A stretch of DNA of 64,000 bases from an uncultured Actinomycetota bacterium (GCA_963787805.1 CAWBEJ010000025.1:30475-94474), one strand, 5' to 3'. Numbered from the stretch's first letter, positions 3,628 to 62,184 are shown. Numbers and translations: made by a program. Notes: generated from the letters alone by a model not told the origin.

Positions 3628-4515
3628 ATGACGAGCTCCCCCTTCGGTCGTGTCCTCACCGCGATGGTGACCCCGATGTCACCGGACGGCGAGCTCGACG
3701 ACAAGGGCACCGACTCGCTCGTGGACCACCTGCTCGGAACGGGTCACGACGGCATCGTCGTCAACGGCACGACCGGGGAGTCGTCGACCCTCACCGACGA
3801 CGAGAGCATCGCGCTCGTGCGCCGCGTCAAGGACCGTGCGGGCGACCGCGCGGCGGTCGTCGCCGGCGTCGGGTCGAACGACACCCGCCACGCCGTGGAC
3901 ATGGCCCGGCGCGCGGCGCAGGCAGGAGCCGACGCCCTCCTCCTCGTCACGCCGTACTACAACAAGCCCACCCAGGCCGGCGTCGTCGCGCACTGCCGCG
4001 CCGTCGCCGACACGACCGACCTGCCGGTCATGCTCTACGACATTCCGACCCGCACCGGCATCCCCTTCACGACGGAGACGCTCATCACCCTCGCCGAACA
4101 CCCGCGCATCGCCGCCGTCAAGGACGCGAAGGGCGACCTGTGGGCGTCCACCAAGGTCATGGCCGGGACCGACCTGCTGTGGTTCAGCGGCGCCGACGAG
4201 CTCAACCTCCCGCTCCTGGCCCAGGGGGCGGTCGGCGTCGTGTCGGTGGTCGGTCACGTGGCCGGTGAGCAGTATGCCGCCATGGTCACCGCCGTCGACC
4301 GCGGCGACCTCCGCGAGGCCCGCCGCCTGCACACCTCCCTCATCCGCGTCGTCGAGGCGATCATGACGACCTCCCAGGGGGCGATCATGGCCAAGGCGGC
4401 TCTGGTCGAGCTCGGTGTCCTGGAGTCGGCGACCGTCCGCCTGCCGCTCGTCGAGTCGCCACCGGAGCACCTCGAGCTGCTCCGGTCCGCCCTCGCGACG
4501 CTGCCGACCCGATGA
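3628..4515 (+). CDS. dapA: 4-hydroxy-tetrahydrodipicolinate synthase
   Basis: GTTGES, TPYYNKP, LYDIP, AVKDA; adjacent to rnj. Confidence 0.96.
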   Translation: MTSSPFGRVLTAMVTPMSPDGELDDKGTDSLVDHLLGTGHDGIVVNGTTGESSTLTDDESIALVRRVKDRAGDRAAVVAGVGSNDTRHAVDMARRAAQAGADALLLVTPYYNKPTQAGVVAHCRAVADTTDLPVMLYDIPTRTGIPFTTETLITLAEHPRIAAVKDAKGDLWASTKVMAGTDLLWFSGADELNLPLLAQGAVGVVSVVGHVAGEQYAAMVTAVDRGDLREARRLHTSLIRVVEAIMTTSQGAIMAKAALVELGVLESATVRLPLVESPPEHLELLRSALATLPTR

Positions 4516-6197
4516 GCCACCCCCACCCCGAGCTCGACCTTCCCGGTCCGCTCGTGGACGGCGGGGTTCGCGTCGTCCCTCTCGGCGGTCTCGGCGAGAT
4601 CGGCCGCAACATGACCGTCATCGAGCACCGGGGGCAGCTCCTCATCATCGACTGCGGGGTGCTGTTCCCCGATGACCACCACCCGGGGATCGACCTCATC
4701 CTCCCGGACTTCGAGTACATCAAGGATCGCCTCGACGCCGTCCAGGCCGTCGTCCTCACCCACGGACACGAGGACCACATCGGGGCGGTGCCCTATCTCC
4801 TGCGCCTCAAGCCCGACCTGCCGCTCGTGGGCTCGCAGCTCACGCTGGCCCTCGTCGAGGCGAAGCTCAAGGAGCACCGCATCCGGCCCTACACGCTCGG
4901 CGTGCGTGAGGGCGACCGCGAGCGGCTCGGCCACTTCGACTGCGAGTTCGTCGCGGTGAACCACTCCATCCCCGATGCGCTCGCCGTGGCGGTGCGCACC
5001 TCGGGAGGGACGCTGCTGCACACCGGCGACTTCAAGATGGACCAGCTTCCCCTCGACGGCCGGCTCACGGACCTGCGGGCCTTCGCACGCCTGGGAGAGG
5101 AGGGCGTCGACCTCTTCCTCACCGACTCGACCAACGCCGAGGTCCCCGGCTTCACGACGCCCGAGCGCGACATCTCCTCCGCCATCGACAAGGTCTTCCG
5201 CCACGCCGAGCGGCGGGTCATCGTCGCCTGCTTCTCCTCCCACGTGCACCGCGTGCAGCAGGTCCTCGACGCGGCCCAGAAGGCGGGCCGCAAGGTGGCC
5301 ATGGTGGGCCGGTCGATGGTCCGGAACATGGGCATCGCCGCCGAGCTCGGCTACCTGCACGTGCCCGCCGGCGTCCTCGTCGACGTCAAGCAGCTCGACG
5401 ACCTGCGCGACGACCAGATCGTGCTCATCTGCACCGGCAGCCAGGGTGAGCCGATGGCGGCACTGTCCCGCATGGCCAACCGGGACCACCGGATCGACGT
5501 GGGCCGCGGCGACACCGTGCTTCTCGCGTCCTCGCTCATCCCCGGCAACGAGAACGCCGTGTACCGCGTCATCAACGGCCTCATGCGGCTCGGGGCGGCG
5601 GTGGTCCACAGGGGGAACGCGAGGGTGCACGTGTCGGGGCATGCCAGCGCCGGGGAGCTCCTCTACTGCTACAACATCGTCCGGCCACGCAACGTCATGC
5701 CGGTGCACGGGGAGTGGCGCCACCTCGTCGCCAACGCGGAGCTCGCCGTGGCCACGGGCGTCCCGCGTGACCGCGTCGTCGTCGTCGAGGACGGCGTGGC
5801 CGTCGACCTCGTCGACGGGGAGGCAGCGGTCTCGGGCGCGGTCCCCTCGGGATACGTCTATGTGGACGGCGCCTCGGTGGGCGGGGCGGACGAGGGCCTG
5901 CTCAAGGACCGTCGCATCCTGCGCGACGAGGGCTTCATCTCCGTCACCGTCGTCGTCGACTCGATGACCGGGAAGATCATCGCCGGTCCTGAGATCACGG
6001 CGAGAGGTTTCGTCGAGGACGAGGTCGTGTTCGACGACGTCATGCCCTCGCTCGTTCGGGCCCTCGACGAGGCCACGGCGAACGGTGTCGCGGACACCTA
6101 CCAGCTGCAGCAGGTCATCCGTCGGTCGGTCGGTGGCTGGGTGGGGCGGAAGATCCGCCGTCGGCCGATGATCATCCCCACGGTCATCGAGGCCTGA
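4512..6197 (+). CDS. rnj: Ribonuclease J
   Basis: PLGGLGEIGRNM, THGHEDHIG, HVSGHA, MPVHGE. Confidence 0.97.
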   Translation: MSHPHPELDLPGPLVDGGVRVVPLGGLGEIGRNMTVIEHRGQLLIIDCGVLFPDDHHPGIDLILPDFEYIKDRLDAVQAVVLTHGHEDHIGAVPYLLRLKPDLPLVGSQLTLALVEAKLKEHRIRPYTLGVREGDRERLGHFDCEFVAVNHSIPDALAVAVRTSGGTLLHTGDFKMDQLPLDGRLTDLRAFARLGEEGVDLFLTDSTNAEVPGFTTPERDISSAIDKVFRHAERRVIVACFSSHVHRVQQVLDAAQKAGRKVAMVGRSMVRNMGIAAELGYLHVPAGVLVDVKQLDDLRDDQIVLICTGSQGEPMAALSRMANRDHRIDVGRGDTVLLASSLIPGNENAVYRVINGLMRLGAAVVHRGNARVHVSGHASAGELLYCYNIVRPRNVMPVHGEWRHLVANAELAVATGVPRDRVVVVEDGVAVDLVDGEAAVSGAVPSGYVYVDGASVGGADEGLLKDRRILRDEGFISVTVVVDSMTGKIIAGPEITARGFVEDEVVFDDVMPSLVRALDEATANGVADTYQLQQVIRRSVGGWVGRKIRRRPMIIPTVIEA

Positions 6198-6290
6198 CAC
6201 AGGCGCTCAGGTCCTCATCGCGCTCATCTTGGCCTCAGTGTTCCGCGTGTGACGCATGTGTCCGGTGTGACTGTCGCGTAGCCTGCGCCC

Positions 6291-9032
6291 ATGGCGACTC
6301 GTACGTCTTCCTCGCCGCGCGGCCGCACGACGTCCACGCGTCCACGGGGGCAGCGCCCCACTGCTCGTTCGAGCGGACGCTCCCGCAAGGCCCGGTCCGG
6401 GCGTCTTCCGCTGCCCGTGCGCGCCGTGCAGAACACGTGGATGGGTCTTGCGCACGCGACCGGCGCGGTGGCGCGCAAGGTGGGCGACACCGGCCGCGAC
6501 CTCGAGCCGGAGCACCGCCGTGACGGCGTCGGTCTGCTCCTTCTGGCCCTTGCCGTCGTCGTCGCCGCTCGCGAGTGGTGGGGCATGCCGGGTGATGTGG
6601 GCACGATCGTCCACGCCGTCATCGCAGGAACCTTCGGCAAGGTCGGCTACGTCGTCCCCCTCGTGCTGCTCGCGTTCGGCATCCGCATGCTGCGCGCGCC
6701 GCAGGACGAGGCGGCGACCTCGCGTGCGGCCGTCGGGACGACCGCTCTGGCCTTCGCCGCGTGCGGTCTGACCCACGTCGCCGCCGGCATCCCCACACCA
6801 CCCGAGGGCGCCGACGGGATGCGGGCGGCGGGCGGCATCCTGGGTTTCCTCTCCTCCAGCCCGCTGGAGGCCGCCGTCTCCGTCTACGGAGCCGTGCCGC
6901 TGCTGCTCCTCCTCGGGCTCTTCGGTGTCCTCGTCATCACGGCGACGCCCCTGCACCAGGTGCCCACCCGACTTCGGGCCGTCACGGACCGGCTCACCGG
7001 CCACCCTCCCGTCGCGCCGAACGACACGGCCACGACCGCTCCGGTGAACGACCGGCGTCGGGCGGGCCGGGGCGCCGCGCTCGACGGCGATGGCCCGCGG
7101 GTCGGCGACGAGGCGTTCGAGCAGGCCGCCCTCGTCGACCCCGTCACCGGCAAGCGTCTCCGCCCGGGGCAGAAGCGGTCCACGGCGCCCCTTGCCGTCC
7201 CGGACGGAGGAGGCGAGGCCACCGCGATGGGCGGACCGGCAGCGCGAGGCCCCGTCCCGGAGCGAGTGCCGCTGGAGGCGCCTCCCACGACCCCGCTGCC
7301 GCAGCGGGTCGAACAGCTGTCGCTGGCCGGTGACGTGACCTACACCCTCCCCGACGCCGCACTCCTCGAGCCCGGCAGCCCGCACAGGGCTCGCAGCGCC
7401 GCGAACGACCGCATCGTGGAGTCGCTGACGACGGTGCTCGACCAGTTCGAGATCGACGCCCAGGTCACCGGCTTCAGCCGGGGTCCGACCGTGACGCGGT
7501 ACGAGGTGGAGCTCGGCCCGGGGATCAAGGTCGAGCGCGTCACCGCGCTCTCCAAGAACATCGCGTATGCCGTGGCCTCCGCCGACGTGCGGATCCTCAG
7601 TCCCATCCCCGGGAAGTCGGCGATCGGCATCGAGATCCCGAACCTCGACCGCGAGAAGGTCAGCCTCGGCGACGTCCTGCGCAGCCAGGTGGCCCGCGGC
7701 ACCGACCACCCGATGGTCATGGGCGTGGGCAAGGACGTCGAGGGCGGCTACGTCGTCGCCAACCTCGCGAAGATGCCGCACCTCCTCGTCGCAGGTGCCA
7801 CGGGCGCCGGGAAGTCGAGCTTCGTCAACTCGATGATCACCTCGATCCTCATGCGCGCGACGCCCGAAGAGGTGCGCCTCGTGCTCGTCGACCCGAAACG
7901 GGTCGAGCTCACCGCGTACGAGGGCATCCCGCACCTCATCACCCCGATCATCACCAACCCCAAGAAGGCCGCCGAGGCCCTGCAGTGGGTGGTGCGTGAG
8001 ATGGACACCCGCTACGACGACCTCGCCGCCTTCGGCTTCAAGCACGTCGACGAGTTCAACAAGGCGGTCAAGGGCGCGAAGGTGACCCCGCTGCCCGGTT
8101 CCGAGCGCGTGCTCACCCCCTACCCCTACCTCCTCGTCGTCGTCGACGAGCTCGCGGACCTCATGATGGTCGCCCCGCGCGACGTCGAGGAGTCGATCGT
8201 CCGGATCACCCAGCTCGCGCGCGCGGCCGGCATCCATCTCGTGCTGGCCACCCAGCGGCCGAGCGTCGACGTCGTGACCGGGCTCATCAAGGCCAACGTG
8301 CCGTCACGGATGGCCTTCGCGACCTCGAGCGTCACGGACTCGCGGGTGGTCCTCGACCAGCCCGGCGCCGAGAAGCTCATCGGGCAGGGTGACGCCCTCT
8401 TCCTGCCGATGGGCGCCAGCAAGCCGATGCGCGTGCAGGGCGCCTGGGTCACCGAGTCCGAGATCCACGCCGTCGTCAAGCACGTCACCGGGCAGCTGCG
8501 ACCCACCTACCGCGACGACGTCACGGTGAGCGCACCCAGGAAGCAGGTCGAGGACGACATCGGCGACGACCTCGACCTGCTGCTGCAGGCCACCGAGCTC
8601 GTCGTCACGACGCAGTTCGGCTCCACGTCGATGCTGCAGCGCAAGCTGCGCGTCGGCTTCGCCAAGGCCGGCCGGCTCATGGACCTGCTGGAGTCCCGTG
8701 GTGTCGTCGGCCCGTCCGAGGGGTCCAAGGCGCGCGACGTCCTCGTCAAGCCCGACGACCTCGCCACGACCCTCGCGCTGCTGCGCGGCGAGGACGTGCC
8801 GGACGTCGCGATCGAGCCGTATGCCGTGCCGGTGGACGGTGTCGCCGGGACCGGGGGTCGCCGGTCACCGACGACTCCACGGACGACACCTCGGAGGTGC
8901 CGGTCATCGCCTACCAGCGCGACGCCGTCGCCGACGACCTCGACCGGTACCCCGTCGCGAGGGACTGGGCCGACGGGGACTCCGGGAGACGACGGCAGCG
9001 ACGACGCGTGGGAGCTCACCGGCCGCCGGTGA
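6291..9032 (+). CDS. ftsK: DNA translocase FtsK; acidic C-terminal tail probably carries two compensating indels (~8855, ~8985)
   Basis: N-terminal TM region, GATGAGKS Walker [22 protein letters not shown], gamma domain [21 protein letters not shown]. Confidence 0.96.
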
Positions 9033-9781: not shown

Positions 9782-10974
9782 TCAGGTCGGGCTGACCGTC
9801 GAGGTCCTCGATGCGGGCCAGGCTCGGCCCGCGCCGTGCCCTGGATCTCACGCGCACACGCCTCGGCGGCACCCAGGACCCGAAGGGCGTTGCCCCCGGC
9901 CATCGCCGCCAGGTCCGCGTCGCTCCAGCCGCGGTCTGCCAGCGCGGCCAGCAGGCGCGGGTAGCCGGTGACGTCCTCGAGGCCCTGGGGCAGCACGTCG
10001 ACCCCGTCGTAGTCGCCGCCGAGCCCGATGTGCTCGACCCCGGCCACCTCACGGGCGTGCTCGCAGTGTGCGACGACGTCGTCAATGGTGGCCACCGGCC
10101 CGCCCATCCTGCGGCGCCGCGCCTCGAGGAAGGGGGCGTATGCCGTGGAGTCGTCCGCGTCGATGCCCTCGGCCGCTGCGGCTTCGCTCGCCTCCAGGTC
10201 CCAGTCACGGACGCTCTGGGAGACGAAGCGCGGGACGAACGTCACCATGCACAGGCCGCCGTTGTGCCGCAGGCGCTCGAGCACGTCGTCGGGCACGTTG
10301 CGGGGGTGGTCGCACAAGGCGCGGGCCGAGGAGTGGGAGAACATCGCCGGCGCCTGCGTGACGTCGAGGGCGTCGCGCATCGTGTCTGCCGAGACGTGCG
10401 AGAGGTCGACGAGCATGCCCAACCGGTTCATCTCCCGGACCACCTCGTGCCCGAACGGGGACAAGCCGCCGAGCTCGGGCTCGTCGGTGGCAGAGTCCGC
10501 CCACGGCACGTTGTCGTTGTGGGTCAGCGTGAGGTAGCGGACGCCGAGGGCGTAGAGCATCCGCAGCGCCCCGAGCGAGGAGTCGATGCTGTGCCCGCCC
10601 TCGGCGCCCAGCAACGAGGCGATCCGGCCCTCGGCCCGGGCACGGTGGACGCCGGCGACCGAGGTCGCGAGAGCGAGGTCACCGGCATACCTCGCGGTCA
10701 TGCAGTGCACGGCATCCACCTGCTCCAGCGTGGCCGTGACGGCCGCGAGCCCCTGCAGATGGGACGGCACGAAGACCGACCAGAACTGGGCGCCCACGCC
10801 GCCCTCGCGCAGTCGAGGAAGGTCGGTGTGGGTCGCCTGGCGACTCGAGATGTCGAGCTGGTCCCAGTCGTAGCCGGCCCGTTCCCGCGCCTCCCACGGG
10901 AGGTCGTTGTGTCCGTCGACGACAGGGTGCTCGGCGAGAAGCGCGCGGATCCGGCCGAGGCTGTCCGAAGGCAT
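9782..10974 (-). CDS. Membrane dipeptidase (peptidase M19); 3' end frameshifted at ~9840, stop position approximate
   Basis: [41 protein letters not shown]; the likely terminus [13 protein letters not shown] lies in another frame. Confidence 0.9.
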
Positions 10975-14084: not shown

Positions 14085-14951
14085 TCACCGTGAGGCCCGG
14101 TACGCTCCGCGTCCCCCCGCTCCGAGCGGTCGTTGTGGTCGGCCGTCGTCGGTCGGCGCCAGGCCCTTCTGACAGGTCGGGCACGAGAAGAGCGTCCGCT
14201 CCCGGGGGGCCGCACCCGTCGTCGCCACCCGCACCGTGTCACCGCAGCGCCGGCATGGACGGCCCGAGCGCGCGTGCACATAGGCCTCCTCACCGGAGCG
14301 CCGCACGCCGGTGCTCGCCTGCCGGCCGGTGCGTCGTGCGGCATCCATGAGCCGGTGCGCTCGGTGCAGGAGCCGAAGCACTCTCTCGGGTTCGACCTGA
14401 GCGACCGGTGTCCAGGGCAGGATCCCCTCGAGGAACAGGGTCTCGCTCGCCCAGAACGTGCCGACCCCGGCGAGGACCCGTTGGTCGAGCAGCGCGTCGC
14501 CGACGAACCCCGGGTATGCCGTGACGCGTGCGGCGGCGCGGTCGGCGTCCCAGTCTGGGCCGAGCACGTCGGGTCCCAGGTGGCCGACGAGGTCGTCCTC
14601 CCGGCTCGTGGGGACGAGGTCCAGCATGCCGAGGCGAAGACCCACGGCGGACCACCGCGCCGTGAGGACTGCCGCACGCAGGTCTGCCCGGCGCAACGCC
14701 CGCTCGGTGTCGTGCCCCGGGTGCTCGACCCGCCACTGGCCCTCCATCCGCAGATGGGTGTGGAGGGTGGCGCCGGTGTCGAAGCGATGGAGGATGTGCT
14801 TGCCACGCGCCACGACCTCCACGGTGCGCGATCCGCGAAGGTCGACGTCCGGGACCGTCGGCCAGCGCAGCTCGCAGCGATCGACGATCTCGCCGCGTAG
14901 GGCGGCATCCAGGCGGTCGGCCGTCCGCCACACGGTGTCACCCTCGGGCAC
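14085..14951 (-). CDS. nei: Fpg/Nei-family DNA glycosylase
   Basis: N-terminal PEGD, RGKH, THLRMEG, LLDQRVLAGVG, C-terminal Zn finger CRRC/CPTC. Confidence 0.93.
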   Translation of the reverse strand: MPEGDTVWRTADRLDAALRGEIVDRCELRWPTVPDVDLRGSRTVEVVARGKHILHRFDTGATLHTHLRMEGQWRVEHPGHDTERALRRADLRAAVLTARWSAVGLRLGMLDLVPTSREDDLVGHLGPDVLGPDWDADRAAARVTAYPGFVGDALLDQRVLAGVGTFWASETLFLEGILPWTPVAQVEPERVLRLLHRAHRLMDAARRTGRQASTGVRRSGEEAYVHARSGRPCRRCGDTVRVATTGAAPRERTLFSCPTCQKGLAPTDDGRPQRPLGAGGRGAYRASR

Positions 14952-14957: not shown

Positions 14958-17900
14958 TCACCGCCGCATCCGGAGCCCGCGGGGGGTCAGGTGGAACCCC
15001 GCCACCTCGAGCGCGGCCACCACCGGGTGACCCGAGCCGAGCAGCTGCCCGCCGTCGGCTTTCTCGACGGTGATCCGGCCGAGACTCCCCCGTCGCACCG
15101 CGTCGGCGAGCGCGGTCGCCGCGGCGGCCAGGAGGCGGGGATCCTCGCTGTACGTCAGCAGGGTCTTCCCGCCGCGCTCGACGTAGAGAAGGAGCTCGCC
15201 GTCGACGAGCACGACGACCGCCCCGGCCTTGCGGCCGGGCTGGTGGTGTCGGCGTCGGTCCGGAGCGGTCGACGCAGCTTCCCCCTGCCCGTCGGCCGCG
15301 GGGTCGACCGCGCGGTCCGGCCAGGACAGGGCGGCACCGAAGGGGTTCGCCGGGTCGCTGGCCGCCAGCACCACCGCGGTCGGGCTGTCCCGGGTCCCGT
15401 TGTGCGCCGATCCGCTGCGGAGCCGGTCGACGGCCCCGGTGGTGCCGAACTGGGACGCCCCGAGGCCCTCGACGAAGTACCCGCGACGGACCCGGCCCGC
15501 CTCCTCTGCCCGACCGAGCACCCGGTAGATCGCCGCGAACCCGCCCGGGACGTCCTCCGCGGCCGTGGCGCCGCGGGTGAGGATGCCGTGTCGGTCGAGG
15601 AGGAGCTCTGCCGTGGCGTAGGTGCGCAGCGTCGGGTCGAGCTCCACCGGGGGGAGCAGAGACCACCGACCCGTGACCCGTGCCGGGCCCGACCGGGTGG
15701 GGAGCACCGGTCGTGGCGGTGCCGCACCGAGCCCGCCGAGGGGGCCCCGCCGACCGGCATACCTGGTGCGGCGGGGTCCCGTCGCCGTCCTCCGGTGGGC
15801 CGTGCGCCCGCCGCCGAGGAGGGCCCGGACCGGAGCGAAGGTGTCACCGGTGACCCGGCCGGCCCACACGAGCTCCCACAGGGTCGTCGCGAGGGCGTCG
15901 TCGTCGGTGGCGCCGACCTGGTCGGAGAGGGCGCGGAAGAAGTGCGCTCCACCTCCGCCGAGAGCATCGAGCACGGCGATGCCCTGCTCGGAGGGGGGAC
16001 GCTCCGGGTCGGGACCGGGCAGGGTGAGGTGAGCGGAGTCGGCGAGGTGCAGTGAGACCCACCCGTCGTCGCCGGGGAGCGACCCGTGACCGCACCACAG
16101 CACCTCACCGGTCGACATCAGCTCGTCGAGGAGCGCTGGGGAGTAGTCGCGAACGCGGGAGGGGAGGACGAGGGACTCCACCGCACTGGCGGGCACCACC
16201 GCTCCGCTCAGCTGCTCGACGGCGCGCAGCAGCCCGTCGCGACCCCGCAACGACCCGCCGACGCCCTGCCAACCCAGGAGGAAGCGAGAGAGCTCGACCG
16301 GCGTGACCGGCTCGACCTCGGCACGCAGCGCGGCGAGCGAGCGTCGACGGAGCATGCGCAGCACCTCGGCGTCGCAGTACTCGGTGCCACCCCCGCCGGT
16401 CGGAAGCAGCTCGCCCTCGACGACGCGTCCCGTGGAGACCAGCCGGGCGAGGGCGGCCGTGGCGACGGCGGGGCCGAGACCATGGGCGCGGGCCACCTCG
16501 CCGGCATGGAAGGGTGCGTGCGTGCGGGCATAGCGGGCGACGAGGTCACCCAGGGGGTCTGCGACCGGCTCGAGGAACGCCTGCGGCACACCCGGTGGCA
16601 GAGAGACGCCGAGCGCGTCCCGGAGCCGTGCGGCGTCCTCGATCGCTGCCCAACGGTCCTCGCCCGCGACCCGGACGGGGATCACCTGACGGAGGCCCGC
16701 GAGACCCTCGAGCCAGGCCTCCACGTCGGCTCCCGTGGTGCCTTCGCGGCACCGGACGAGGACGGCCTCGGTCGACAGCGGTCCGAGGCTGCGCAGGAGG
16801 TCGAGGGTGTCGTCGGCGTCGCGAGCCGCACGTTCGGGTGTGAGCCGTTGCAGCTCGGCCTCCGTGCGAGCGATCTGCTCGGCGTCGAGGAGGTCGCGCA
16901 GGGCCAGGCCCTCGCCGGTGCCGAGGAGCTCCGCCAGCAGGGACGGGTCGAGGGCCAGCGCGGCGGCCCGGCGCTCCGCGAGCGGGGAGTCCCCCTCGTA
17001 GAGGAACTGCGCCACGTAGCCGAAGAGGAGCGACTTGGCGAAGGGGGACGGGGTGGCGCTCTCGACGTCGACGACGGTGACCCGGCGGGACGCGATGTCG
17101 CGCATGAGGTCGACGAGACCGGGAACGTCGAAGACGTCCTGGACGCACTCCCGAACGGCCTCGAGGACGATGGGGAACGACGGGTACTGGCTCGCCACCT
17201 CGAGCAGCTGGGAGGCCCGTTGGCGTTGCTGCCAGAGCGGCTGCCGGCGGTCCGGGCGCCGACGAGGGAGGAGCAGCGCTCGGGCCGCGCACTCGCGGAA
17301 GCGGGCTGCGAAGAGCGCCGAGCCGCCGATCTCGTCGGTGACGAGGCCTCGGACGTCGTCGGGCTCGAGGATGACGATGTCGAGCAGCTCGTGGCCCACC
17401 CCTCGGCCACCCACGCCGGTCACGTCGTCGAGCTCCAGGTCCGGCAGGCGCAGCACGATGCCGTCGTCGCCGTGCATCGCCTGGACGTCCACGCCGAACC
17501 GGTCGCGCATCCGTGCGCCGACCGCCAGCGCCCAGGGAGCGTGCACCTGCGCCCCGAAGGGCGAGTGGACGGCGACCCGCCAGTCGCCGAGCTCGTCCCG
17601 GAACCTCTCGACGACGATCGTCCGGTCGTCGGGGACGTGGCCGGTGGCCTCCCGCTGCTCCCGCAGGTACCCGAGGAGGTTGTCGGCGGCCCACTCGTCG
17701 AGCCCGGCCGCCATCACGCGCTCCCGGGCGGCCGGGGGCGCGAGCCCGACCACCTCACGGACGAAGGCCCCGACCGCGCGGCCGAGCTCCGCGGGCCGTC
17801 CCAGGGAGTCGCCCTTCCAGAAGGGGAGCCGGCCCGGCAGGCCCGGCGCCGGAGTCACGAGGACCCGGTCGTGGGTGATGTCCTCGATCCGCCACGTGCT

Positions 17901-19646
17901 CGTCCCGAGGGTGAACAAGTCACCGACCCGTGACTCGTACACCATCTCCTCGTCGAGCTCGCCCACGCGGCGGCCGGGCCCGTCGCCGGTCGCGAGGAAG
18001 ACGGCATACAGGCCCCGGTCGGGGATGGTGCCGCCGGAGGTGACGGCGAGGCGCTGGGCGCCGCGACGGCCGGTGAGGGTGTCCGAGAGGCGGTCCCAGG
18101 TGACTCGGGCACGCAGCTCGGCGAACTCCTCGCTCGGGTAGCGGCCCGCGAGCATGTCGAGCACGGACTCCAGCACCGGGCGAGTGAGCGTCGCGTAGGG
18201 GGCGGCGCGCCGGGCGAGGGTGAGCACGTCGTCGACGCTCCACTCGTCGAGCGCACACATGGCGACGACGTGCTGGGCGAGGACGTCGAGGGGGTTGGCG
18301 GGCACGCGGAGCGCCTCGATCTGGCCGGCGAGCATGCGCTCGACGACGACAGCGGTCTGGACGAGGTCGCCACGGAACTTGGGGAACAGCACCCCCCTGC
18401 TGACCGCCCCCACCTGGTGGCCGGCACGGCCCACACGCTGGAGGCCCGAGGCCACCGACGGCGGTGACTCGACCTGCACGACGAGGTCGACCGCGCCCAT
18501 GTCGATGCCGAGCTCGAGGCTGCTCGTGGCCACCACGGCGGGGAGGCGCCCCGACTTCAGCTCCTCCTCGATGGTGGCGCGCTGCTCCTTGCTGACCGAC
18601 CCGTGGTGGGCCCGCGCCAGCACGGCGGGGGCGCCGCGCGCTGCACCCGACTGGGCCATGATCTGCGCGGGACTGTGGCTGAGCACAGCGGGCTGCGACA
18701 CGGCGTCCGCGTCGGTGCGCTCCTCCCAGATCTCGTTGAGCCGGGTGGTGAGGCGCTCGGCGAGACGGCGGCTGTTGGAGAAGACGAGGGTCGAGGTGTG
18801 CTCCGCGACGAGGTCGACGATGCGCTCCTCCACGTGCGGCCAGATCGAGGCGCGCTGCTCCGGTCCCGACGCCGCCCCGGACAGGTCGCCGGTGGGCTGG
18901 CCCAGCTCGGCCATGTCGGGCACGGGGACGACGACCTTGAGGTCCCACGCCTTGGTCGACGGCGGGTGCACGACGTCGACGGGCTGACCCCCGGTGAGGT
19001 AGCGGGCGACCTCCTCCACCGGGCGGACGGTGGCGGACAGCCCGATCCGCTGTGCTGGTCGCGGGAGGAGGGCGTCGAGCCGCTCCAGGGAGAGCGCCAG
19101 GTGGGCGCCGCGCTTGGTGCCGGCGACGGCGTGCACCTCGTCGAGGATCACCGTCTCGACGCCCGCGAGGGCCTCGCGTGCGGCCGAGGTGAGGAGGAGG
19201 AAGAGCGACTCCGGGGTCGTGATGAGGATGTCCGAGGGAGCGCGGGCGAAGGCGCGGCGCTCGTCGGCGGGTGTGTCACCGGAACGCACCGCAACGGTGA
19301 TGTCCGGCTCGAGCAGTCCCAGGCGGGTGGCCGCGTGCCGGATGCCGACGAGTGGGCTGCGCAGGTTGCGCTCGACGTCGACGGCCAGCGCCTTCATCGG
19401 CGACACGTAGAGGACCCGGCAGCGTTGCCGGCGCTCTGCGGGCAGGGGTTGCGACGCAAGACGGTCGAGGGCCCACAGGAATGCCGACAGCGTCTTGCCC
19501 GACCCCGTGGGGGCGACGACGAGGGTGTGGTGGCCGCTGCTGATCGCCTCCCACGCGCCCTCCTGGGCGGTCGTGGGCGCACTGAAGCTGCCCCGGAACC
19601 AGGCCGCCGTGGCCGGGGAGAAGCGGTCGAGGACGTCACCGGTCAT
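14958..19646 (-). CDS. lhr: Lhr ATP-dependent helicase
   Basis: APTGSGKT, DEVH, SAT, TSSLELGIDMG, QRVGRAGH, GGTIPDRG; 1562 aa, paired with nei. Confidence 0.96.
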   Translation of the reverse strand: MTGDVLDRFSPATAAWFRGSFSAPTTAQEGAWEAISSGHHTLVVAPTGSGKTLSAFLWALDRLASQPLPAERRQRCRVLYVSPMKALAVDVERNLRSPLVGIRHAATRLGLLEPDITVAVRSGDTPADERRAFARAPSDILITTPESLFLLLTSAAREALAGVETVILDEVHAVAGTKRGAHLALSLERLDALLPRPAQRIGLSATVRPVEEVARYLTGGQPVDVVHPPSTKAWDLKVVVPVPDMAELGQPTGDLSGAASGPEQRASIWPHVEERIVDLVAEHTSTLVFSNSRRLAERLTTRLNEIWEERTDADAVSQPAVLSHSPAQIMAQSGAARGAPAVLARAHHGSVSKEQRATIEEELKSGRLPAVVATSSLELGIDMGAVDLVVQVESPPSVASGLQRVGRAGHQVGAVSRGVLFPKFRGDLVQTAVVVERMLAGQIEALRVPANPLDVLAQHVVAMCALDEWSVDDVLTLARRAAPYATLTRPVLESVLDMLAGRYPSEEFAELRARVTWDRLSDTLTGRRGAQRLAVTSGGTIPDRGLYAVFLATGDGPGRRVGELDEEMVYESRVGDLFTLGTSTWRIEDITHDRVLVTPAPGLPGRLPFWKGDSLGRPAELGRAVGAFVREVVGLAPPAARERVMAAGLDEWAADNLLGYLREQREATGHVPDDRTIVVERFRDELGDWRVAVHSPFGAQVHAPWALAVGARMRDRFGVDVQAMHGDDGIVLRLPDLELDDVTGVGGRGVGHELLDIVILEPDDVRGLVTDEIGGSALFAARFRECAARALLLPRRRPDRRQPLWQQRQRASQLLEVASQYPSFPIVLEAVRECVQDVFDVPGLVDLMRDIASRRVTVVDVESATPSPFAKSLLFGYVAQFLYEGDSPLAERRAAALALDPSLLAELLGTGEGLALRDLLDAEQIARTEAELQRLTPERAARDADDTLDLLRSLGPLSTEAVLVRCREGTTGADVEAWLEGLAGLRQVIPVRVAGEDRWAAIEDAARLRDALGVSLPPGVPQAFLEPVADPLGDLVARYARTHAPFHAGEVARAHGLGPAVATAALARLVSTGRVVEGELLPTGGGGTEYCDAEVLRMLRRRSLAALRAEVEPVTPVELSRFLLGWQGVGGSLRGRDGLLRAVEQLSGAVVPASAVESLVLPSRVRDYSPALLDELMSTGEVLWCGHGSLPGDDGWVSLHLADSAHLTLPGPDPERPPSEQGIAVLDALGGGGAHFFRALSDQVGATDDDALATTLWELVWAGRVTGDTFAPVRALLGGGRTAHRRTATGPRRTRYAGRRGPLGGLGAAPPRPVLPTRSGPARVTGRWSLLPPVELDPTLRTYATAELLLDRHGILTRGATAAEDVPGGFAAIYRVLGRAEEAGRVRRGYFVEGLGASQFGTTGAVDRLRSGSAHNGTRDSPTAVVLAASDPANPFGAALSWPDRAVDPAADGQGEAASTAPDRRRHHQPGRKAGAVVVLVDGELLLYVERGGKTLLTYSEDPRLLAAAATALADAVRRGSLGRITVEKADGGQLLGSGHPVVAALEVAGFHLTPRGLRMRR

Positions 19647-23482: not shown

Positions 23483-23568
23483 GGCGGCCAGTATGCCGTC
23501 CGCCCGGCACCGCTCGAGGACGCGGAAACGGTGACCGGAGAAGGGGACGCCCGGCATACGATCTGCCG

Positions 23569-29780: not shown

Positions 29781-29828
29781 CGCACGGCGCGCGCCTGTGA
29801 TGGCCACGCGGCATACCCTTGACCCGCC

Positions 29829-40838: not shown

Positions 40839-40947
40839 CAGGCCATCGTGGCACTGGGAGACCGGGTCGCGCTGGGAACCGGCGGACGTGGGGCGGGGTG
40901 TGGACGGGCCCGCGAGCAGTGACGCCGGCACGGCATACCCTGCTCTG

Positions 40948-44182: not shown

Positions 44183-44359
44183 GCGTTTTGGCCGCCAGCG
44201 GTCACCACTGGTAAGTTTGTTCCTTGCGTGCGCGCTTGAGGTCGTGCGCGCACGAAGCACCATCCAGCGCGTGTCCTCCATGGGTGTCCCCACGCCCGGT
44301 CCCGGCTCGCGACTGCCGCCCTCTACGGCATACCGACCCCACAGAAAGCACACGAACCA

Positions 44360-46282: not shown

Positions 46283-47866
46283 ATGACGACGCCGGAGGTG
46301 CGGGCCGCGGACGACGCGGCCCGCGTGCCGACGCACCGAGGCCACTCCAGGGTGCCGCTCTTCCTCAGCGCGCCGTCGGTCGTCGTCGCCGTTCTCGCGC
46401 TCCTGCCGATCGCCTACCTCCTGGTCCGGACGGCAGAGGCCGGTGCGTCGCGCGTGGCGGAGATCCTCCTGCGCGAGCGCACCCTCCTGCTCATCGGCCG
46501 CAGCGTCCTCCTCGCCACCCTGGTGACCTCCCTGAGCATCGCCATCGGCGTGGGCCTCGCCTTCCTGGCCACCCGCACCGACCTGCCCGGCCGGCGCCTC
46601 GTGGCCGCTGTCGCGCCGCTTCCGCTCGCGATCCCGAGCTATGTCGCGGCCTTCGCGTGGATCTCGGCGGTGCCCGAGGTCGCCGGGCTGGCCGGCTCGG
46701 TCCTCGTGCTCACCCTCTGCTGCTACCCCTACGTCTACCTTCCCGTGCTCGCGGCGCTGCGGCGCGCCGACCCCGGGGTCGGGGAGGTCGCCCGGAGCCT
46801 GGGACGCACCCCTTCCCAGGTGTTTCGTGAGGTGACGCTGCGTCAGGTGCGGCCGGCCGCCGCCGCGGGTGGCCTGCTCGTCGCGCTCTACACGCTGAGC
46901 GACTTCGGAGCCGTCTCGATCCTGCGCTACGACGTGTTCACCCGGGTGATCTACACGGCCTACCGGTCGAGCTTCGACCGCTCCACGGCGGCCGTGCTGT
47001 CACTGATCCTCGTCCTCCTCACGGTGGCGATCAGCGTGGGCGAGTCCAGGGTGCGGCGTCGCGACATCGCTCGGGTGGGCGGTGGTGTCTCCCGGGCGGC
47101 CGAGCCGGTGCGGCTGGGTGGGCTCCGGTTCCCGCTCATCGGCGCGACAGCGGTCATCCTGGCCCTGGCCCTGGCGTTCCCCATCGGCTCGTTGCTCTGG
47201 TGGTTCGCGAACGGCCTGTCGGCCGGCATCGACGGTGTCCACCTCGCCCAGAGCATCGTCGCGACCGCCTGGCTCGCGCTCCTCGGGGCCGTCGCCTGCA
47301 CGCTGGGCGCCGTGCCGGTCGGCATCCTCGCCGCGCGTCACCGCGGCAGGTTCACGACCGTTCTCGAGCAGGTGACGTATGCCGGTCACGCCCTGCCGGG
47401 GATCGTCGTCGCCCTCGCCCTCGTCTTCCTCGGCGTGCGAGTGGTTCCGTGGATGTACCAGGAGGCGCCGCTCCTCGTGCTCGCCTACGTGGTGCTCTTC
47501 CTTCCGACCGCGGTCGGGGCGGTCCGCAGCTCGGTGGCCCAGAGCTCCGTCCGCGGCGAGGAGGTCGCCCGGTCCCTCGGCGCCACACCGAGCGACGTCC
47601 TGCGCCGCGTGACCCTGCCGCTGGCGGCCCCGGGCATCGGTGCCGGGGCGGCCCTCGTGCTGCTCACGTGCATGAAGGAGCTTCCGGCGACCCTGTTGCT
47701 CCGTCCCACGGGAACCGACACCCTGGCCACCAGCCTGTGGACCGAGACCGGTGTGGGAGCCTACGGAGCAGCGGCTCCCTACGGCCTTGCCCTCGTGGTG
47801 CTCGCCGTCCTGCCGACGATCTGGCTCATGAGACTCACCGACCGGGAGCGAGGAACACCGCGATGA
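46283..47866 (+). CDS. Fe(III) ABC transporter permease
   Basis: PLAIPSYV, two EAA-like loops, SDFG, MKELPATLLL. Confidence 0.92.
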   Translation: MTTPEVRAADDAARVPTHRGHSRVPLFLSAPSVVVAVLALLPIAYLLVRTAEAGASRVAEILLRERTLLLIGRSVLLATLVTSLSIAIGVGLAFLATRTDLPGRRLVAAVAPLPLAIPSYVAAFAWISAVPEVAGLAGSVLVLTLCCYPYVYLPVLAALRRADPGVGEVARSLGRTPSQVFREVTLRQVRPAAAAGGLLVALYTLSDFGAVSILRYDVFTRVIYTAYRSSFDRSTAAVLSLILVLLTVAISVGESRVRRRDIARVGGGVSRAAEPVRLGGLRFPLIGATAVILALALAFPIGSLLWWFANGLSAGIDGVHLAQSIVATAWLALLGAVACTLGAVPVGILAARHRGRFTTVLEQVTYAGHALPGIVVALALVFLGVRVVPWMYQEAPLLVLAYVVLFLPTAVGAVRSSVAQSSVRGEEVARSLGATPSDVLRRVTLPLAAPGIGAGAALVLLTCMKELPATLLLRPTGTDTLATSLWTETGVGAYGAAAPYGLALVVLAVLPTIWLMRLTDRERGTPR

Positions 47867-50222: not shown

Positions 50223-51239
50223 CCCCTCAGCATGCTCCATCCACGTCGCTCGGCGATGAGGCGGATGGTCGCGTCCGCGAGGAGGAGCTGGTGCTTCCGC
50301 AGGGACGCGGTGCAGCCCGGCGGAGGAGGCTCGTCGACGTCCTCGAGGACGAACCCGGCGAGGGCAGCGAGGAACGCGTCGATGTCGTCGTCCCGCGCGC
50401 CAACGGAGGACCGGGGCGCTGCGGTGGGCGCGCACGTCGATGCCCTGTCGGGACATGCGCGGCCAGAGGCTGACGAGGTCGGCCCACGGTGGCCCGACGC
50501 GGACCCAGTTCCAGTCACACACCCGTACCGTGCCGTCGTCCTCGACGAGGAGGTTGTCCGGACGGATGTCCCAGTGCACGAGCGCCTCGCCCTGGCAGGC
50601 GCGCTCGGCTCGAGCGGCCAGCGCGACGAGCTCCGCGGTGCCGTGGCCGGTGGGTCGCGTGAGCCCGGACGGCCACGCGCGGCCACCGACCGCGAGGGCC
50701 TCCAGCGTGGTGTGCGCGCCGCCGTCGGGGCCGAGCTCCTGCGCCAGGGGCGTGGAGGTGACTCGCGCCACCACCTCCGACGGCGTGCTGGCGATCTCCA
50801 CGCACGCGCGCACGGTCGCGTCGGCATCCGTCTCCGTCCAGGGCCCTCCCGGCTGGCGGCCGTTCACGACGTCGAGGACGAGCAGGCGCCACGGCACGGC
50901 GTCGACGAGCACCTCGGCCGCCCCCATCAGCCGGGTCGGACACCGCAGTCCCGCGAGCTGGGGCAGAATGACCGCTTCCTGCGCGAGGGCCTCGAGGACG
51001 TGCGGCAGGCCGGCCCCGCCGGCCTTCGCGAAGACCTCCCGGCCGTCCTCGAGAAGCAGGCGCCCGGCATACGCCCCACTGAAGCCCGACGTGACCGGCG
51101 CACGAGCTCGGGCGACTGCGGACCCCGCGACGGCGCCGAGCCCGGCGCGGACGGCATCCGGCAGGGCGGCGAAGGTCGGTCGGGCCGACGTCCTCAGGTA
51201 GTCGAGCTCGGGCAGCCGACTCGGCGGCAGTGATGGCAC
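50219..51239 (-). CDS. Aminoglycoside-phosphotransferase-like kinase, frameshift at ~50405
   Basis: [26 protein letters not shown]; C-terminus continues in another frame. Confidence 0.8.
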
Positions 51240-55319: not shown

Positions 55320-55367
55320 ACACGCCACGCTAACGGCGACCGGCATACCCACGGGTAACATCGCCCC

Positions 55368-56666: not shown

Positions 56667-57887
56667 GTGCCCCGACTGCCCGACGGCGACCTCGCGCCAG
56701 AGTCCGGCGAGCTGCCGCCGGCGGCCCTCGCGACGCTCCGCAGCAGCCGGCTCGGGATCTACGTCCACGTGCCGTTCTGCGCGGTGCGCTGCGGCTACTG
56801 CGACTTCAACACCTACACGCTGACCGAGCTCGGCCCCGGCGCATCGACGGCGGACTTCGCCGACTCGGCCCTCGCAGAGCTCGACGTCGCCGTGCGTGTC
56901 CTCGGCGAGGACGCCGGTCCGGTCGACACGGTCTTCGTCGGTGGTGGCACGCCGACGCTCCTCCCTCCCCGTGACCTCGTGCGGATCGTCGACGGCATCC
57001 GGGCGAGGTTCGAGCTGGTGGCCGACGCCGAGGTGACGACCGAGGCCAACCCCGACTCGGTCACCCCGGCCGGCCTCGAGGAGCTCTCTGCCGGAGGCTT
57101 CACCCGGGTGTCGATCGGCATGCAGTCGGTCGTGCCCCACGTGCTCGAGACCCTCGACCGCACGCACGACCCCTCCCGTGTCGTCACCGCCGTCGCCGGG
57201 GCACGGGAGGCGGGTCTCGCGACGAGCCTCGACCTCATCTACGGCACCCCGGGGGAGTCGCTCGACGACTGGCGGGCCAGCCTGGAGGCGGCAGTCGCCC
57301 TGGCCCCGGACCACGTGTCGGCCTACGCACTCGTCGTCGAGGAGGGAACCCGGTTGGCCGCCCGAGTGCGTCGCGGCGAGCTGCCGTTGCCCGACGGCGA
57401 CGACGAGGCGGACAAGTACGAGCTGGCCGACGAGCTGCTCGCGTCGGTGGGGTACGACTGGTACGAGGTGAGCAACTGGGCTCGGGACGCTGGCACCCGC
57501 TGCCGCCACAACGAGGGCTACTGGCGCGGCGACACCTGGTGGGGCGTCGGCCCGGGTGCGCACAGCCACGTCGGCGGCGTCCGGTGGTGGAACGTGAAGC
57601 ACCCGAGGTCGTATGCCGGGCGGCTCGCGTCGGGCGCGTCACCGGCGGCCGGTCGGGAGACCCTGACCGAGGCGCAGCGGCACGACGAGGAGGTGCTCCT
57701 CGGGGTGCGGCTGCGAGAGGGTCTTCCCCTCGACCGCCTCGACGACCTCGGCCACGAGGCCGTTGCCGGTCTCGTGGCCGAGGGGCTCGTCGACGGCCCG
57801 GCCGCGGTGCGTGACCGCCGGGTGGTGCTCACGCTGCGCGGGCGGCTCCTCGCGGACGGTGTCGTGCGCCGCCTGGTCGGCGTCTGA
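56667..57887 (+). CDS. hemW: Radical SAM heme chaperone HemW
   Basis: YVHVPFC..RCGYCDFN, GGGTP, YEVSNW, HN..YW. Confidence 0.95.
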   Translation: MPRLPDGDLAPESGELPPAALATLRSSRLGIYVHVPFCAVRCGYCDFNTYTLTELGPGASTADFADSALAELDVAVRVLGEDAGPVDTVFVGGGTPTLLPPRDLVRIVDGIRARFELVADAEVTTEANPDSVTPAGLEELSAGGFTRVSIGMQSVVPHVLETLDRTHDPSRVVTAVAGAREAGLATSLDLIYGTPGESLDDWRASLEAAVALAPDHVSAYALVVEEGTRLAARVRRGELPLPDGDDEADKYELADELLASVGYDWYEVSNWARDAGTRCRHNEGYWRGDTWWGVGPGAHSHVGGVRWWNVKHPRSYAGRLASGASPAAGRETLTEAQRHDEEVLLGVRLREGLPLDRLDDLGHEAVAGLVAEGLVDGPAAVRDRRVVLTLRGRLLADGVVRRLVGV

Positions 57888-57898
57888 CGGCGGGTGCG

Positions 57899-59174: not shown

Positions 59175-59215
59175 CCCCACCCGCCCGACCCGAGTCCGGA
59201 GGTGAAGAGGACCCG

Positions 59216-60247
59216 ATGAGCGAGGACCGCCGTCTGCGCGTGCTGCGTGCGATCGTCCAGGACTACGTCCACACCTCGGAGCCCGTCGGCTCCAAGGCGC
59301 TGCTCGAGCGCCACCACCTCGGCGTCTCCGCGGCGACCGTGCGCAACGACATGGCGGTGCTCGAGGAGGAGGGACTCATCGCCGCCCCGCACACGAGTGC
59401 CGGGCGAGTGCCGACGGACGCGGGGTACCGCCTCTTCGTCGACCGGCTGTCCGCCATCAAGCCCATGAGCGCCGCCGAACAGCGGGCCATCTCCCAGTTC
59501 CTCGAGGGGGCCGTGGATCTCGACGACGTCGTCGACCGCACCGTGCGACTCCTCGCGTCGCTGACCCGGCAGGTCGCCGTCGTGCAGTACCCGTCACTCT
59601 CGCGGTCGTCCGTTCGGCACGTCGAGCTCGTGCCGATCGGGGGCGAGCGGCTCCTCGTCGTCCTCATCACGACGACGGGCCGGGTGGAGCAGCGGGTCAT
59701 CGACGTCGGCATCGACCTGCTCACCGACGACGGCGAGCAGGCGCTGGCGACGTTGCGAGCCGAGCTCAACCGGGCGACGAGCGGCCGTACCCTGGCCGAG
59801 GCGTCGATTGAGCTCTCGGTGGTTCCCGAGCGGCTCGACCCGGCCCTGCGCGACCTCGTCCGCTCGATCAGCACCGCCCTGCAGGACTCGCTGGTCGAGG
59901 AGCGTGAGGAACGTGTCGTCCTGGCCGGGACCGCCAACCTCGCCCGCGTGGGACCGGACTTCACGACGAGCCTGGGACCGGTGCTCGAGGCGCTCGAGGA
60001 GCACGTCGTCCTCCTCAAGCTGCTCGGCACGGTCGCCGAGGAGGGCGGCAGCGTCGCCGTCCGCATCGGGCACGAGAACCCGTATGCCGGCCTGCACACG
60101 ACCTCGATGGTCACGACCGGCTATGGCGCCGGCACCGACCTCGTCGCGGGGCTCGGCATCGTCGGCCCGACCCGGATGGACTACCCGACGACGATGGCGG
60201 CCGTGCGCGCGGTGGCGACCTACGTCTCGCGGATTCTCGCGCAGTAG
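59216..60247 (+). CDS. hrcA: Heat-inducible transcription repressor
   Basis: [34 protein letters not shown]. Confidence 0.98.
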
Positions 60248-60304
60248 ACCGCCGCTCCACCCCCACCCCGACCGACCACCACCGTCCCGGAGGACCCGCC
60301 AGCC

Positions 60305-61432: not shown

Positions 61433-61440
61433 CAACGGCC

Positions 61441-62184
61441 ATGACCCTGCCGCTCCATCTGCTGACGGGTGAGACGCTGACCGGCCGCGGCGTCGGGGAC
61501 GTCGTCGTCCTCGACGGCCCGGAGGGCCGGCACGCCGCCACGGTGCGACGAACCCGGGTGGGGGAGCGACTCCTGCTCACCGACGGCGAGGGGAAGCGGG
61601 TCGAGGCGCGGGTCGTCGCGGTCGGCGCCGGATCGCTGGACCTCGAGGTCGTCTCCGTGACCACCGACCCCCTGCCGAGCCCTCGGTTCGTCCTCGTCCA
61701 GGCTCTGGCCAAGTACGACCGGGACGAGCAGGCGGTCGAGGCGGCCACGGAGTGCGGTGTCGACGAGGTCGTCCCGTGGCAGGCGTCGCGCAGCGTCGTC
61801 CAGTGGCGGGGTGAGCGAGGCGAGAAGGCCCGGCGCAAGTGGGACGCCGTTCTCCTGGCCGCCACGAAGCAGTCACGCCGCACGCGTCGGCCGGTGCTGG
61901 CCGCCACGGCCACGACAGCGGAGCTCGCGGTCCGGGTCCGAGGTGCGGCGGCGGCATACGTGTTGCACGAGGACGCCCGGATGCCCCTGGCGAGCGTCTC
62001 GCTCCCGGCCGCCGGCGACGTCGTGCTCGTCGTGGGGCCGGAGGGCGGGGTGGCACCCGAGGAGCTCGCCGCCCTGGCGTCGGCCGGCGCGTCGGTGGTG
62101 CGCCTCGGCGGGACCGTGCTCCGGTCCTCGACCGCCGGCCCGGCCGCCCTGGCGGTGCTCAGCGCGATGGCGCGCTGGCGCTGA
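61441..62184 (+). CDS. rsmE: 16S rRNA m3U1498 methyltransferase
   Basis: EGRHA..VRR, ATE.GVD, KQSRR, VGPEGG, VLRSSTAG. Confidence 0.95.
   Translation: MTLPLHLLTGETLTGRGVGDVVVLDGPEGRHAATVRRTRVGERLLLTDGEGKRVEARVVAVGAGSLDLEVVSVTTDPLPSPRFVLVQALAKYDRDEQAVEAATECGVDEVVPWQASRSVVQWRGERGEKARRKWDAVLLAATKQSRRTRRPVLAATATTAELAVRVRGAAAAYVLHEDARMPLASVSLPAAGDVVLVVGPEGGVAPEELAALASAGASVVRLGGTVLRSSTAGPAALAVLSAMARWR

Follow-up and report, generated by a model that had tools for sequence, protein, structure and literature searches.

To our knowledge, the genome-saturating DNA words with a known reader are the uptake sequences of two proteobacterial families and Chi; HIP1 of cyanobacteria is unexplained. Here we describe a nonpalindromic 8-mer, GTATGCCG (the GT word), that is hyperabundant in a 64,000-nucleotide window (G000:C25:30475-94474) of a soil actinobacterium and throughout its genome, together with the one-base variant GGATGCCG (the GG word). 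The source genome (G000 of genus g1; 2.79 Mb, 27 contigs, 71.6% GC, rated 74% complete) was placed in the Dermatophilaceae, as defined in GTDB, by an FtsK search. Among described systems, the DNA uptake sequences (DUS) of the Neisseriaceae are short nonpalindromic words that occur about once per kilobase, equally on both strands and with no replichore polarity; they lie inside genes against codon preference, are confined to one family, vary by one base between genera as dialects, and form some inverted hairpin pairs (Frye et al. 2013, PMC3630211). The uptake signal sequences (USS) of the Pasteurellaceae also lie mostly in genes, in preferred frames and with effects on the encoded peptides (Findlay and Redfield 2009, PMC2817400; Bakkali 2007, PMC1939737). 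The word described here resembles both in all these respects. Even spacing has also been reported for USS (PMC2817400; PMC1939737). Topic searches of the literature found no such word described for Actinomycetota, and searches by sequence were swamped by matches to the Illumina P7 adapter.

The window contains 26 exact copies of the GT word, divided equally between the strands (13 each); 100 dinucleotide-preserving shuffles averaged 0.61 copies and never exceeded 3. A preliminary description of this DNA had listed these copies and claimed an enrichment of more than 10-fold over composition; every coordinate and strand was exact, and the shuffles bear the enrichment out. Its counts of the base that follows the word (G 11, T 10, C 5, A 0) and its estimate that half of the TAT/ATA sites fall inside the word (26 of 53 in the window) were likewise correct. 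The one-mismatch copies that it named at 266, 29018, and 60511 are real but are not the full list: the window holds 74, of which 43 are the GG word. The copies are as follows.

4272 to 4279, plus strand: GT word in a plus-strand gene, CAG-TAT-GCC-GCC (Q-Y-A-A); the nearest relative (L022) has GTACGCCG here.
7565 to 7572, plus strand: GT word in ftsK, GCG-TAT-GCC-GTG (A-Y-A-V).
8819 to 8826, plus strand: GT word in the 3′ tail of ftsK, CCG-TAT-GCC-GTG (P-Y-A-V); L022 reads P-F-D-A, so the protein differs.
10138 to 10145, plus strand: GT word, coding by GC periodicity, outside the gene calls.
10683 to 10690, minus strand: GT word, reading CGGCATAC on the plus strand.
14514 to 14521, plus strand: GT word opposite a minus-strand gene, ACG-GCA-TAC (T-A-Y); kept in L022.
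15755 to 15762, minus strand: GT word in a 1,562-aa helicase gene, AGG-TAT-GCC-GGT; L022 has GTACGCCG.
18002 to 18009, minus strand: GT word in the same 1,562-aa helicase gene, CTG-TAT-GCC-GTC; kept in L022 and L014.
21527 to 21534, minus strand: GT word.
23491 to 23498, plus strand: GT word, convergent pair with the copy at 23552, 61 bp apart.
23552 to 23559, minus strand: GT word, probably noncoding (GC content flat by codon phase).
29809 to 29816, minus strand: GT word.
31199 to 31206, plus strand: GT word, CCG-TAT-GCC-GTG.
31477 to 31484, minus strand: GT word, probably intergenic.
32754 to 32761, plus strand: GT word opposite a gene, CCG-GCA-TAC (P-A-Y).
37984 to 37991, minus strand: GT word opposite a gene, ACG-GCA-TAC.
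40931 to 40938, minus strand: GT word, GGG-TAT-GCC-GTG.
42787 to 42794, plus strand: GT word opposite a gene, CCG-GCA-TAC.
43336 to 43343, plus strand: GT word.
44326 to 44333, minus strand: GT word, probably intergenic.
47377 to 47384, plus strand: GT word.
51065 to 51072, minus strand: GT word.
55341 to 55348, minus strand: GT word.
57611 to 57618, plus strand: GT word, TCG-TAT-GCC-GGG.
60082 to 60089, plus strand: GT word, CCG-TAT-GCC-GGC.
61952 to 61959, minus strand: GT word, ACG-TAT-GCC-GCC.
1 to 64000, strand unspecified: GG word, 43 dispersed copies, the main dialect of genus g1.

The source genome as a whole carries 1,098 copies of the GT word (575 on the plus and 523 on the minus strand), making it the 8-mer with the highest over-representation; 64 copies are expected under an order-3 and 34.5 under an order-1 Markov model. 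Within called genes, 815 copies were observed against 82.8 ± 8.4 when synonymous codons were shuffled within each gene (9.8-fold), a conservative null because the surplus TAT and GCA codons are retained. The signal thus stands about 10-fold or more above both the codon-shuffle and the Markov nulls that had been proposed as checks. Each of the eight positions is tightly constrained, and there is hardly any information in the flanks; the word is therefore neither a dispersed repeat nor adapter sequence. A repeat of the repetitive extragenic palindrome (REP) or miniature inverted-repeat transposable element (MITE) type was rejected on the same nearly uninformative flanks and because about three quarters of the copies (815 of 1,098) lie within called genes.

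The GG word is the sole strongly enriched neighbor of the GT word, with 1,975 copies in the genome, a 4.0-fold excess over the synonymous-codon shuffle, and 108 copies in short intergenic gaps vs. 28 of GGACGCCG. Because it is also strongly enriched, the full motif is GKATGCCG, wider than the GT word alone, with ∼3,070 copies or 1.1 per kb. The GG word forms part of this system and is the predominant form in genus g1.

In genes, the GT word is written as xxG-TAT-GCC-G on the coding strand or as xCG-GCA-TAC on the other; the T at position 4 nearly always falls at a wobble position. Where the protein permits the word, it fills 420 of 925 X-Tyr-Ala-[VADEG] sites (45%) and 280 of 698 [SPTA]-Ala-Tyr sites (40%); orientation relative to transcription has hardly any effect on filling, in keeping with the earlier claim that genes encode it both ways. 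Tyr is mostly TAC outside the motif, as had also been noted: in called genes, TAT makes up 74.9% of Tyr codons in the G_TAY_GCC_G context vs. 5.4% elsewhere. The proteins themselves are shifted. Compared with residue shuffles, Tyr-Ala dipeptides are raised 1.21-fold (an excess of 306) and Ala-Tyr dipeptides 1.10-fold, and His-Ala dipeptides are lowered to 0.88-fold (a deficit of 256). In short intergenic gaps (90.6 kb), there are 35 copies of the GT word vs. 1 to 5 of each one-base variant tested, a density of ∼0.4 to 0.5 per kb that equals the density in genes. The excess over the codon shuffle and the equal intergenic density uphold the earlier view that the word is kept at the level of DNA and not of protein.

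We rejected a pure C-to-T hotspot at position 4. The G_TAY_GCC_G context occurs 560 times vs. 58 for the version with GCG and 253 after C, so several positions are drawn toward the word simultaneously.

Some intergenic copies form inverted pairs, which outside the window lie in the source genome at C25:142663-142702, C6:33502-33556, and C13:173279-173309. In the C25 and C6 pairs at least, the complementary arms are longer than the word itself and make longer, terminator-like hairpins.

The copies are arranged by strand. Although the strands are ∼50/50 on every contig with no replichore polarity, neighboring GT copies alternate strand in 61.5% of cases vs. 50.4% under label shuffling (z = 7.7). 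Among GT–GT pairs within 700 bp of each other, 67 were on the same strand (148 expected) and 219 on opposite strands (150 expected). Pairs of a GT with a GG word behaved alike (same strand, 415 vs. 530 expected; opposite strands, 638 vs. 541), as did GG–GG pairs (453 vs. 488 and 532 vs. 485). The two words therefore interfere with each other by strand as GT copies do among themselves. Both the same-strand deficit and the opposite-strand excess are gone beyond ∼0.7 to 1 kb, pairs of both kinds together are as numerous as expected at random, and control words show the reverse tendency, with same-strand pairs at 1.15- to 1.25-fold.

To control for protein composition, we restricted an occupancy test to sites where the protein permits the word. 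Occupancy fell from 46 to 30% with a same-strand copy within 700 bp (odds ratio 0.50, P = 1.5e-7) and rose to 48% beside an opposite-strand copy (odds ratio 1.37, P = 0.004). GG neighbors gave the same asymmetry; control words did not. Neither a mutation hotspot nor very-short-patch repair, nor any other process that treats each site separately, predicts this layout; a reader confined to one strand or direction and reaching ∼700 bp does.

The word is confined to the family and divided within it. All 18 sampled species of genus g1 are enriched (155 to 1,410 copies of the GT word vs. 15 to 100 of the reversed word), and in 12 other families of the order, it is at background. A survey of 150 Dermatophilaceae genomes at least 90% complete, from 67 genera, gave bimodal counts: ∼36 genera have roughly 900 to 5,400 copies, in line with the expectation that relatives would share the enrichment, and ∼27 genera are at a background of 7 to 130. 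The highest count was 5,422 copies in 3.6 Mb, or one per 0.66 kb. More than 90 independent genomes of the Dermatophilaceae carry it at hyperabundant levels, closed genomes and that of the isolate Metallococcus carri among them. Because many word-rich genomes are closed or come from isolates, adapter contamination is excluded, as is the basecalling error that had been named as a possible source. The 22-kb FtsK loci alone contain 26 copies in M. carri, 10 in an Intrasporangium metagenome-assembled genome (MAG), and 15 in a dolphin-oral MAG.

The GG word is hyperabundant (0.7 to 1.3 per kb) only in genera g1, g27, g31, and g48 and occurs elsewhere at 0.12 to 0.25 per kb. Within g1, the two words trade off: three genomes (G003, G005, and G008) have 40 to 70 GT and ∼1,000 GG copies per Mb, and the source genome with three others (G004, G010, and G017) has 370 to 410 GT and ∼700 GG copies per Mb. 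The source genome is thus “bilingual,” and a dialect shift is possibly under way. A third form, GTACGCCG, stands at three of five orthologous word sites in L022, whose FtsK is 86% identical, and is the top word in genus g45 (22 copies in a 20-kb sample); it is slightly depleted in the source genome, at 0.75-fold of the codon shuffle. On a tree of the FtsK motor, the GT, GG, and low states are interspersed, with GG in at least two separate clades, and no fewer than four changes are forced by well-supported branches for the GT state, and likewise for the low state. This single-gene tree is weak, with outgroups nested inside, and serves only to show that the states are interspersed.

At individual sites, the AYAV peptide at 7565 is kept in all relatives, but the word itself is kept only in Metallococcus and the dolphin-oral MAG. 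In short Logan contigs from soil and rhizosphere metagenomes (90 to 99% alike), the T is unchanged at 4272, 7565, and 8819 among the matches listed, which weighs neither way. The ftsK frame that bears the 8819 copy runs ∼94 codons past the gamma domain (8748-9029), the usual end of the protein, and this tail is poorly conserved.

Genus g42, which is low for the GT word, has 28 copies of an unrelated word, GAAGGGGG, in a 20-kb sample. Genome counts of GAAGGGGG are 2,921 in G059 (g42), 2,007 in G079 (g62), and 784 in G070 (g53), compared with 69 in G094 (g77, a sister genus) and 68 in G049 (g32, a GT genus). We measured its layout in one genome, over 420 kb of G059 (L090 and L266-L285, G059:C1:1-420000). 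There, 472 copies were found vs. 38 expected, with every position sharply specified and variable flanks. The strands are balanced (244+/228−), alternation is 60.5%, and among pairs within 700 bp, 123 are on the same strand (183 expected) and 210 on opposite strands (183 expected); convergent pairs less than 100 bp apart are enriched 2.5-fold. That a word of different sequence should alternate in this way over the same 700-bp scale is a new finding. Because layout and length scale are equal though the word differs, the one genome examined suggests that GKATGCCG and GAAGGGGG are served by a common machinery with replaceable specificity.

In 20-kb samples from the low genera g14, g22, g26, g28, g37, g44, g51, and g59, no obvious word was seen, and some low genera probably lack any word. 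GCTGGTGG, enriched in 20 kb of genus g21, reached only 1.4- to 1.6-fold over its reversed control genome-wide, and we do not claim it. Other candidates came from single 20-kb samples: GACGCGTC in genus g52 (17 palindromic sites; L097 = G069:C1:1-20000), GTACGGCG in g50 (14 copies; L095 = G067), and GACGCGCT in g18 (16 copies; L083 = G035). In the 420 kb of G059, the palindrome GCTTAAGC (with TGCTTAAG) occurs 50 times vs. ∼1.6 expected and may represent either a further word, resembling HIP, or a small element dispersed in genus g42.

Along the source genome, GT density is near Poisson at the 10-kb scale (variance/mean 1.09). The two longest GT-free stretches, C16:169794-193217 (23.4 kb) and C18:54092-76040 (21.9 kb), are both surface-polysaccharide clusters, with genes for NeuB (sialic acid-like), a cytidylyltransferase, Polysacc_synt_2, a Wzy-type ligase, glycosyltransferases, and a flippase. 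Surface-polysaccharide loci are typically exchanged horizontally. The depletion in acquired islands that the preliminary description had suggested looking for thus holds for the GT word in these two clusters; the GG word persists there at 0.46 to 0.73 per kb.

Taken together, the results reveal a signal in the DNA itself, actively kept up, old enough for a whole family to share, labile in its specificity, poor in the GT form in exchangeable islands, and directionally read. We tentatively interpret GKATGCCG as a lineage-specific “self-DNA” tag, accumulated by DNA exchange or recombination and read in one direction, in the manner of uptake sequences or Chi; its tie to uptake or recombination is one that we infer. 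As with the Neisseria and Haemophilus uptake sequences, the best-supported mechanism would be molecular drive, selection, or both, acting together with DNA exchange and recombination. DNA bearing the word would be preferentially taken in or recombined, and the word would spread to every site that the protein tolerates, shifting some amino acids. The putative reader, perhaps a single protein, would work along one strand or direction and reach ∼700 bp, such that a second copy in the same orientation within reach would add nothing and become under-represented, and a copy in the opposite orientation would be independent of the first. The same-strand shadow would arise because a new copy gains nothing if a same-orientation copy within one tract length already imports it. 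The specificity of the reader would drift (T or G at position 2, T or C at position 4) or be replaced outright, as with GAAGGGGG in three sister genera. A stronger form of this proposal, which we hold more loosely, is that the Dermatophilaceae may possess a retunable self-recognition system, in which one reader, working on one strand or in one direction over ∼700 bp, has an 8-base specificity that drifts (GTATGCCG, GGATGCCG, GTACGCCG) or swaps (GAAGGGGG), with the genome being rewritten each time.

Several points weigh against a self-DNA tag. We know of no competence or biased uptake in the Dermatophilaceae. Candidate readers were assessed by co-occurrence across one fixed draw of 151 genomes, and among the candidates tried (RecC, PilM, Vsr, FtsK gamma, ComEC, T2SSF, and TraB-like proteins), none tracks the word, so the search for co-occurring genes that had been proposed came back negative. 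PilM of type IVa pili (PF11104) gave one true match in the 151 genomes, so the context of a neisserial-type receptor is missing. ComEC is encoded in 151 of 151 and a Tad-type T2SSF in 150 of 151, which suits an uptake sequence, but proteins that are universal give no account of the word-free genera. Furthermore, uptake by Haemophilus influenzae is independent of USS orientation (PMC1939737); the orientation grammar therefore lies outside what is known of uptake sequences, and a Chi-like reader accounts for it no less well.

A TraB-like translocase was sought and not found in either G000 or G010; PF01580 matched only FtsK, EccC-like proteins, and weak candidates. The two weak matches examined were HerA-like proteins and were rejected, similar weak matches being present in word-free genomes. 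These belong to a conserved HerA-like ATPase of 590 to 612 aa (PF05872, E ∼1e-184 to 1e-193), found at the following places.

G000:C11:44965-46803 (L286:4966-6804), minus strand: HerA-like ATPase, adjoining a CHAD-domain protein.
L287:6375-8147 in G059, strand not stated: HerA-like ATPase, PF05872.

By presence and absence, this ATPase is not the reader, because the similar weak FtsK-domain matches occur in word-free genomes. Viral contigs scanned for inverted pairs were mostly of mid or low GC, and the five at GC ≥0.66 carried no further copies; such matches are due to chance or other taxa and are uninformative on phages of Dermatophilaceae hosts.

The rival that survives best, which we nonetheless consider rather unlikely, is a Chi-like word read in single-stranded DNA by a resecting helicase–nuclease (AdnAB or another enzyme, not RecBCD), halting degradation and promoting RecA loading. 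Both orientations would then be needed at regular density, two-ended breaks being dominant (from desiccation or NucS mismatch cuts). An asymmetric word of 8 nt with every position sharply specified has the form of Chi, and redundancy of same-orientation copies within ∼700 bp, with independence of opposite ones, is what a one-sided reader predicts. The use of unrelated words in related lineages (GKATGCCG vs. the G-rich GAAGGGGG) recalls the taxon dependence of Chi, and the depletion in exchangeable islands also fits. Such a reader accounts equally well for the grammar and the word swaps but fails on polarity, RecBCD, and strength of enrichment. Known Chi sites are co-oriented with replication, whereas contigs here are ∼50/50 (244+/228− in G059), and the absence of strand polarity had already been taken in the preliminary description to argue against signals like Chi or the FtsK-orienting polar sequence (KOPS); on these counts, the word is not a classical Chi or KOPS. 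RecC (PF04257) was found in 47 of 151 genomes but in none of four of genus g1 and is, if anything, commoner in low-word genera. The 10- to 30-fold enrichment appears to be far above that of known Chi sites, and no Chi is known for AdnAB.

A further step down in probability is a site for a chromosome-organizing enzyme or nucleoid protein that acts on one strand, such as a type IA topoisomerase (as in mycobacteria) or an SMC-loading factor, with selection spacing the sites evenly. We regard this as improbable. The uniform density (near Poisson at 10 kb), equal strands, and strand-specific spacing suit it, but exact 8-mers at one per kb are not known for such sites, and it gives no reason for the depletion in polysaccharide islands. 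Nor does it explain the wholesale swap of words between sister genera whose housekeeping proteins are highly conserved: the FtsK gamma domain, present once per genome, is invariant in sequence across GT, GG, GAAGGGGG, and low lineages and the outgroups.

A HIP1-like by-product, in which near matches are converted into the word by deamination or repair of the very-short-patch type once a methyltransferase has marked a related site, is very improbable, although the preliminary description had raised it. Close relatives differ most often by T vs. C at position 4 (three of five sites in L022 have GTACGCCG), GTACGCCG is the word of genus g45, and its 0.75-fold level in the source genome is as this process would have it. 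A hotspot at a single position leaves the other shifts unexplained (560 vs. 58 for GCG and 253 after C), and the word is no palindrome. Mutation of sites one by one would moreover leave them independent of each other, yet interference between copies depends on their orientation and distance. Vsr (PF03852) does not co-occur with the word: it is sporadic within genera (51 of 151 genomes), present in high and low genera alike, and not found in genus g1.

Neither an artifact, whether from adapter contamination or from miscalled bases at a methylated site, nor trivial composition, such as codon-pair usage, accounts for the word, and both are refuted. The word does lie inside the Illumina P7 adapter and the source genome is a 74%-complete MAG, but the flanks are unlike the adapter, more than 90 independent genomes of the family (closed and isolate genomes among them) carry the word when 12 neighboring families do not, and the codon and Markov nulls are exceeded ∼10-fold or more. 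Owing to this match to P7 (…CGTATGCCGTCTTCTGCTTG), aggressive trimming or contamination screens could clip or flag reads from such genomes.

If the proposal of a retunable self-recognition system is correct, this would be the first sequence-specific signal for DNA exchange or recombination in Actinobacteria, with a mechanism distinct from DUS and USS, which are orientation-blind, and from Chi, which is replication-polar. A third case would point to an undescribed route for telling own from foreign DNA, in high-GC Gram-positive bacteria. The Dermatophilaceae include major wastewater phosphorus removers as well as soil and skin relatives, and the word may govern which DNA these hard-to-engineer bacteria accept. 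There are genera with GT, GG, GAAGGGGG, or no word, and g1 species range from nearly GG-only to clearly bilingual; these natural contrasts should make the reader findable by comparative genomics and pull-downs. The word also distorts codon and dipeptide usage and provides a sharp taxonomic marker for binning.

Compared with known systems, uptake sequences are the closest class: the word is family-restricted, has dialects, lacks polarity, lies in genes with effects on peptides, and forms some hairpin pairs. It differs from DUS in that the Neisseriaceae belong to another phylum and use 10 to 12 bp rather than 8 bp, and in that the Dermatophilaceae essentially lack the type IVa pilus (PilM) and hence a ComP-like context. 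Furthermore, GKATGCCG shows no intergenic enrichment, same-strand copies avoid each other, and one subclade uses an unrelated word. That it overlaps the neisserial ATGCCG is most reasonably put down to chance. The rise in Tyr-Ala and fall in His-Ala resemble the peptide effects of USS and fit molecular drive, but uptake through USS is independent of orientation and position (PMC1939737), whereas the layout here depends on orientation. Chi of RecBCD or AddAB is likewise an asymmetric word (5 to 8 nt), read from one side, taxon-specific, and more frequent in the core genome (“Evolution of Chi motifs in Proteobacteria,” PMC8022716). Redundancy of its same-orientation copies is plausible. GKATGCCG, unlike Chi, is not co-oriented with replication, genus g1 is without a detected RecC, and the over-representation appears much stronger. 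HIP1 (GCGATCGC) is also a hyperabundant exact 8-mer running through genes, with an unsettled function; it is palindromic and linked to methyltransferases, whereas GKATGCCG is asymmetric and has copies that interact according to their orientation, and the distribution of Vsr does not follow it. Finally, the words of the FtsK family (KOPS, the SpoIIIE recognition sequence SRS, and the TraB sequences of Streptomyces plasmids) are exactly 8 bp, asymmetric, and directional, and TraB words differ between elements; here, by contrast, there is no polarity toward dif, FtsK gamma does not vary, and G000 and G010 yielded no TraB-like translocase.

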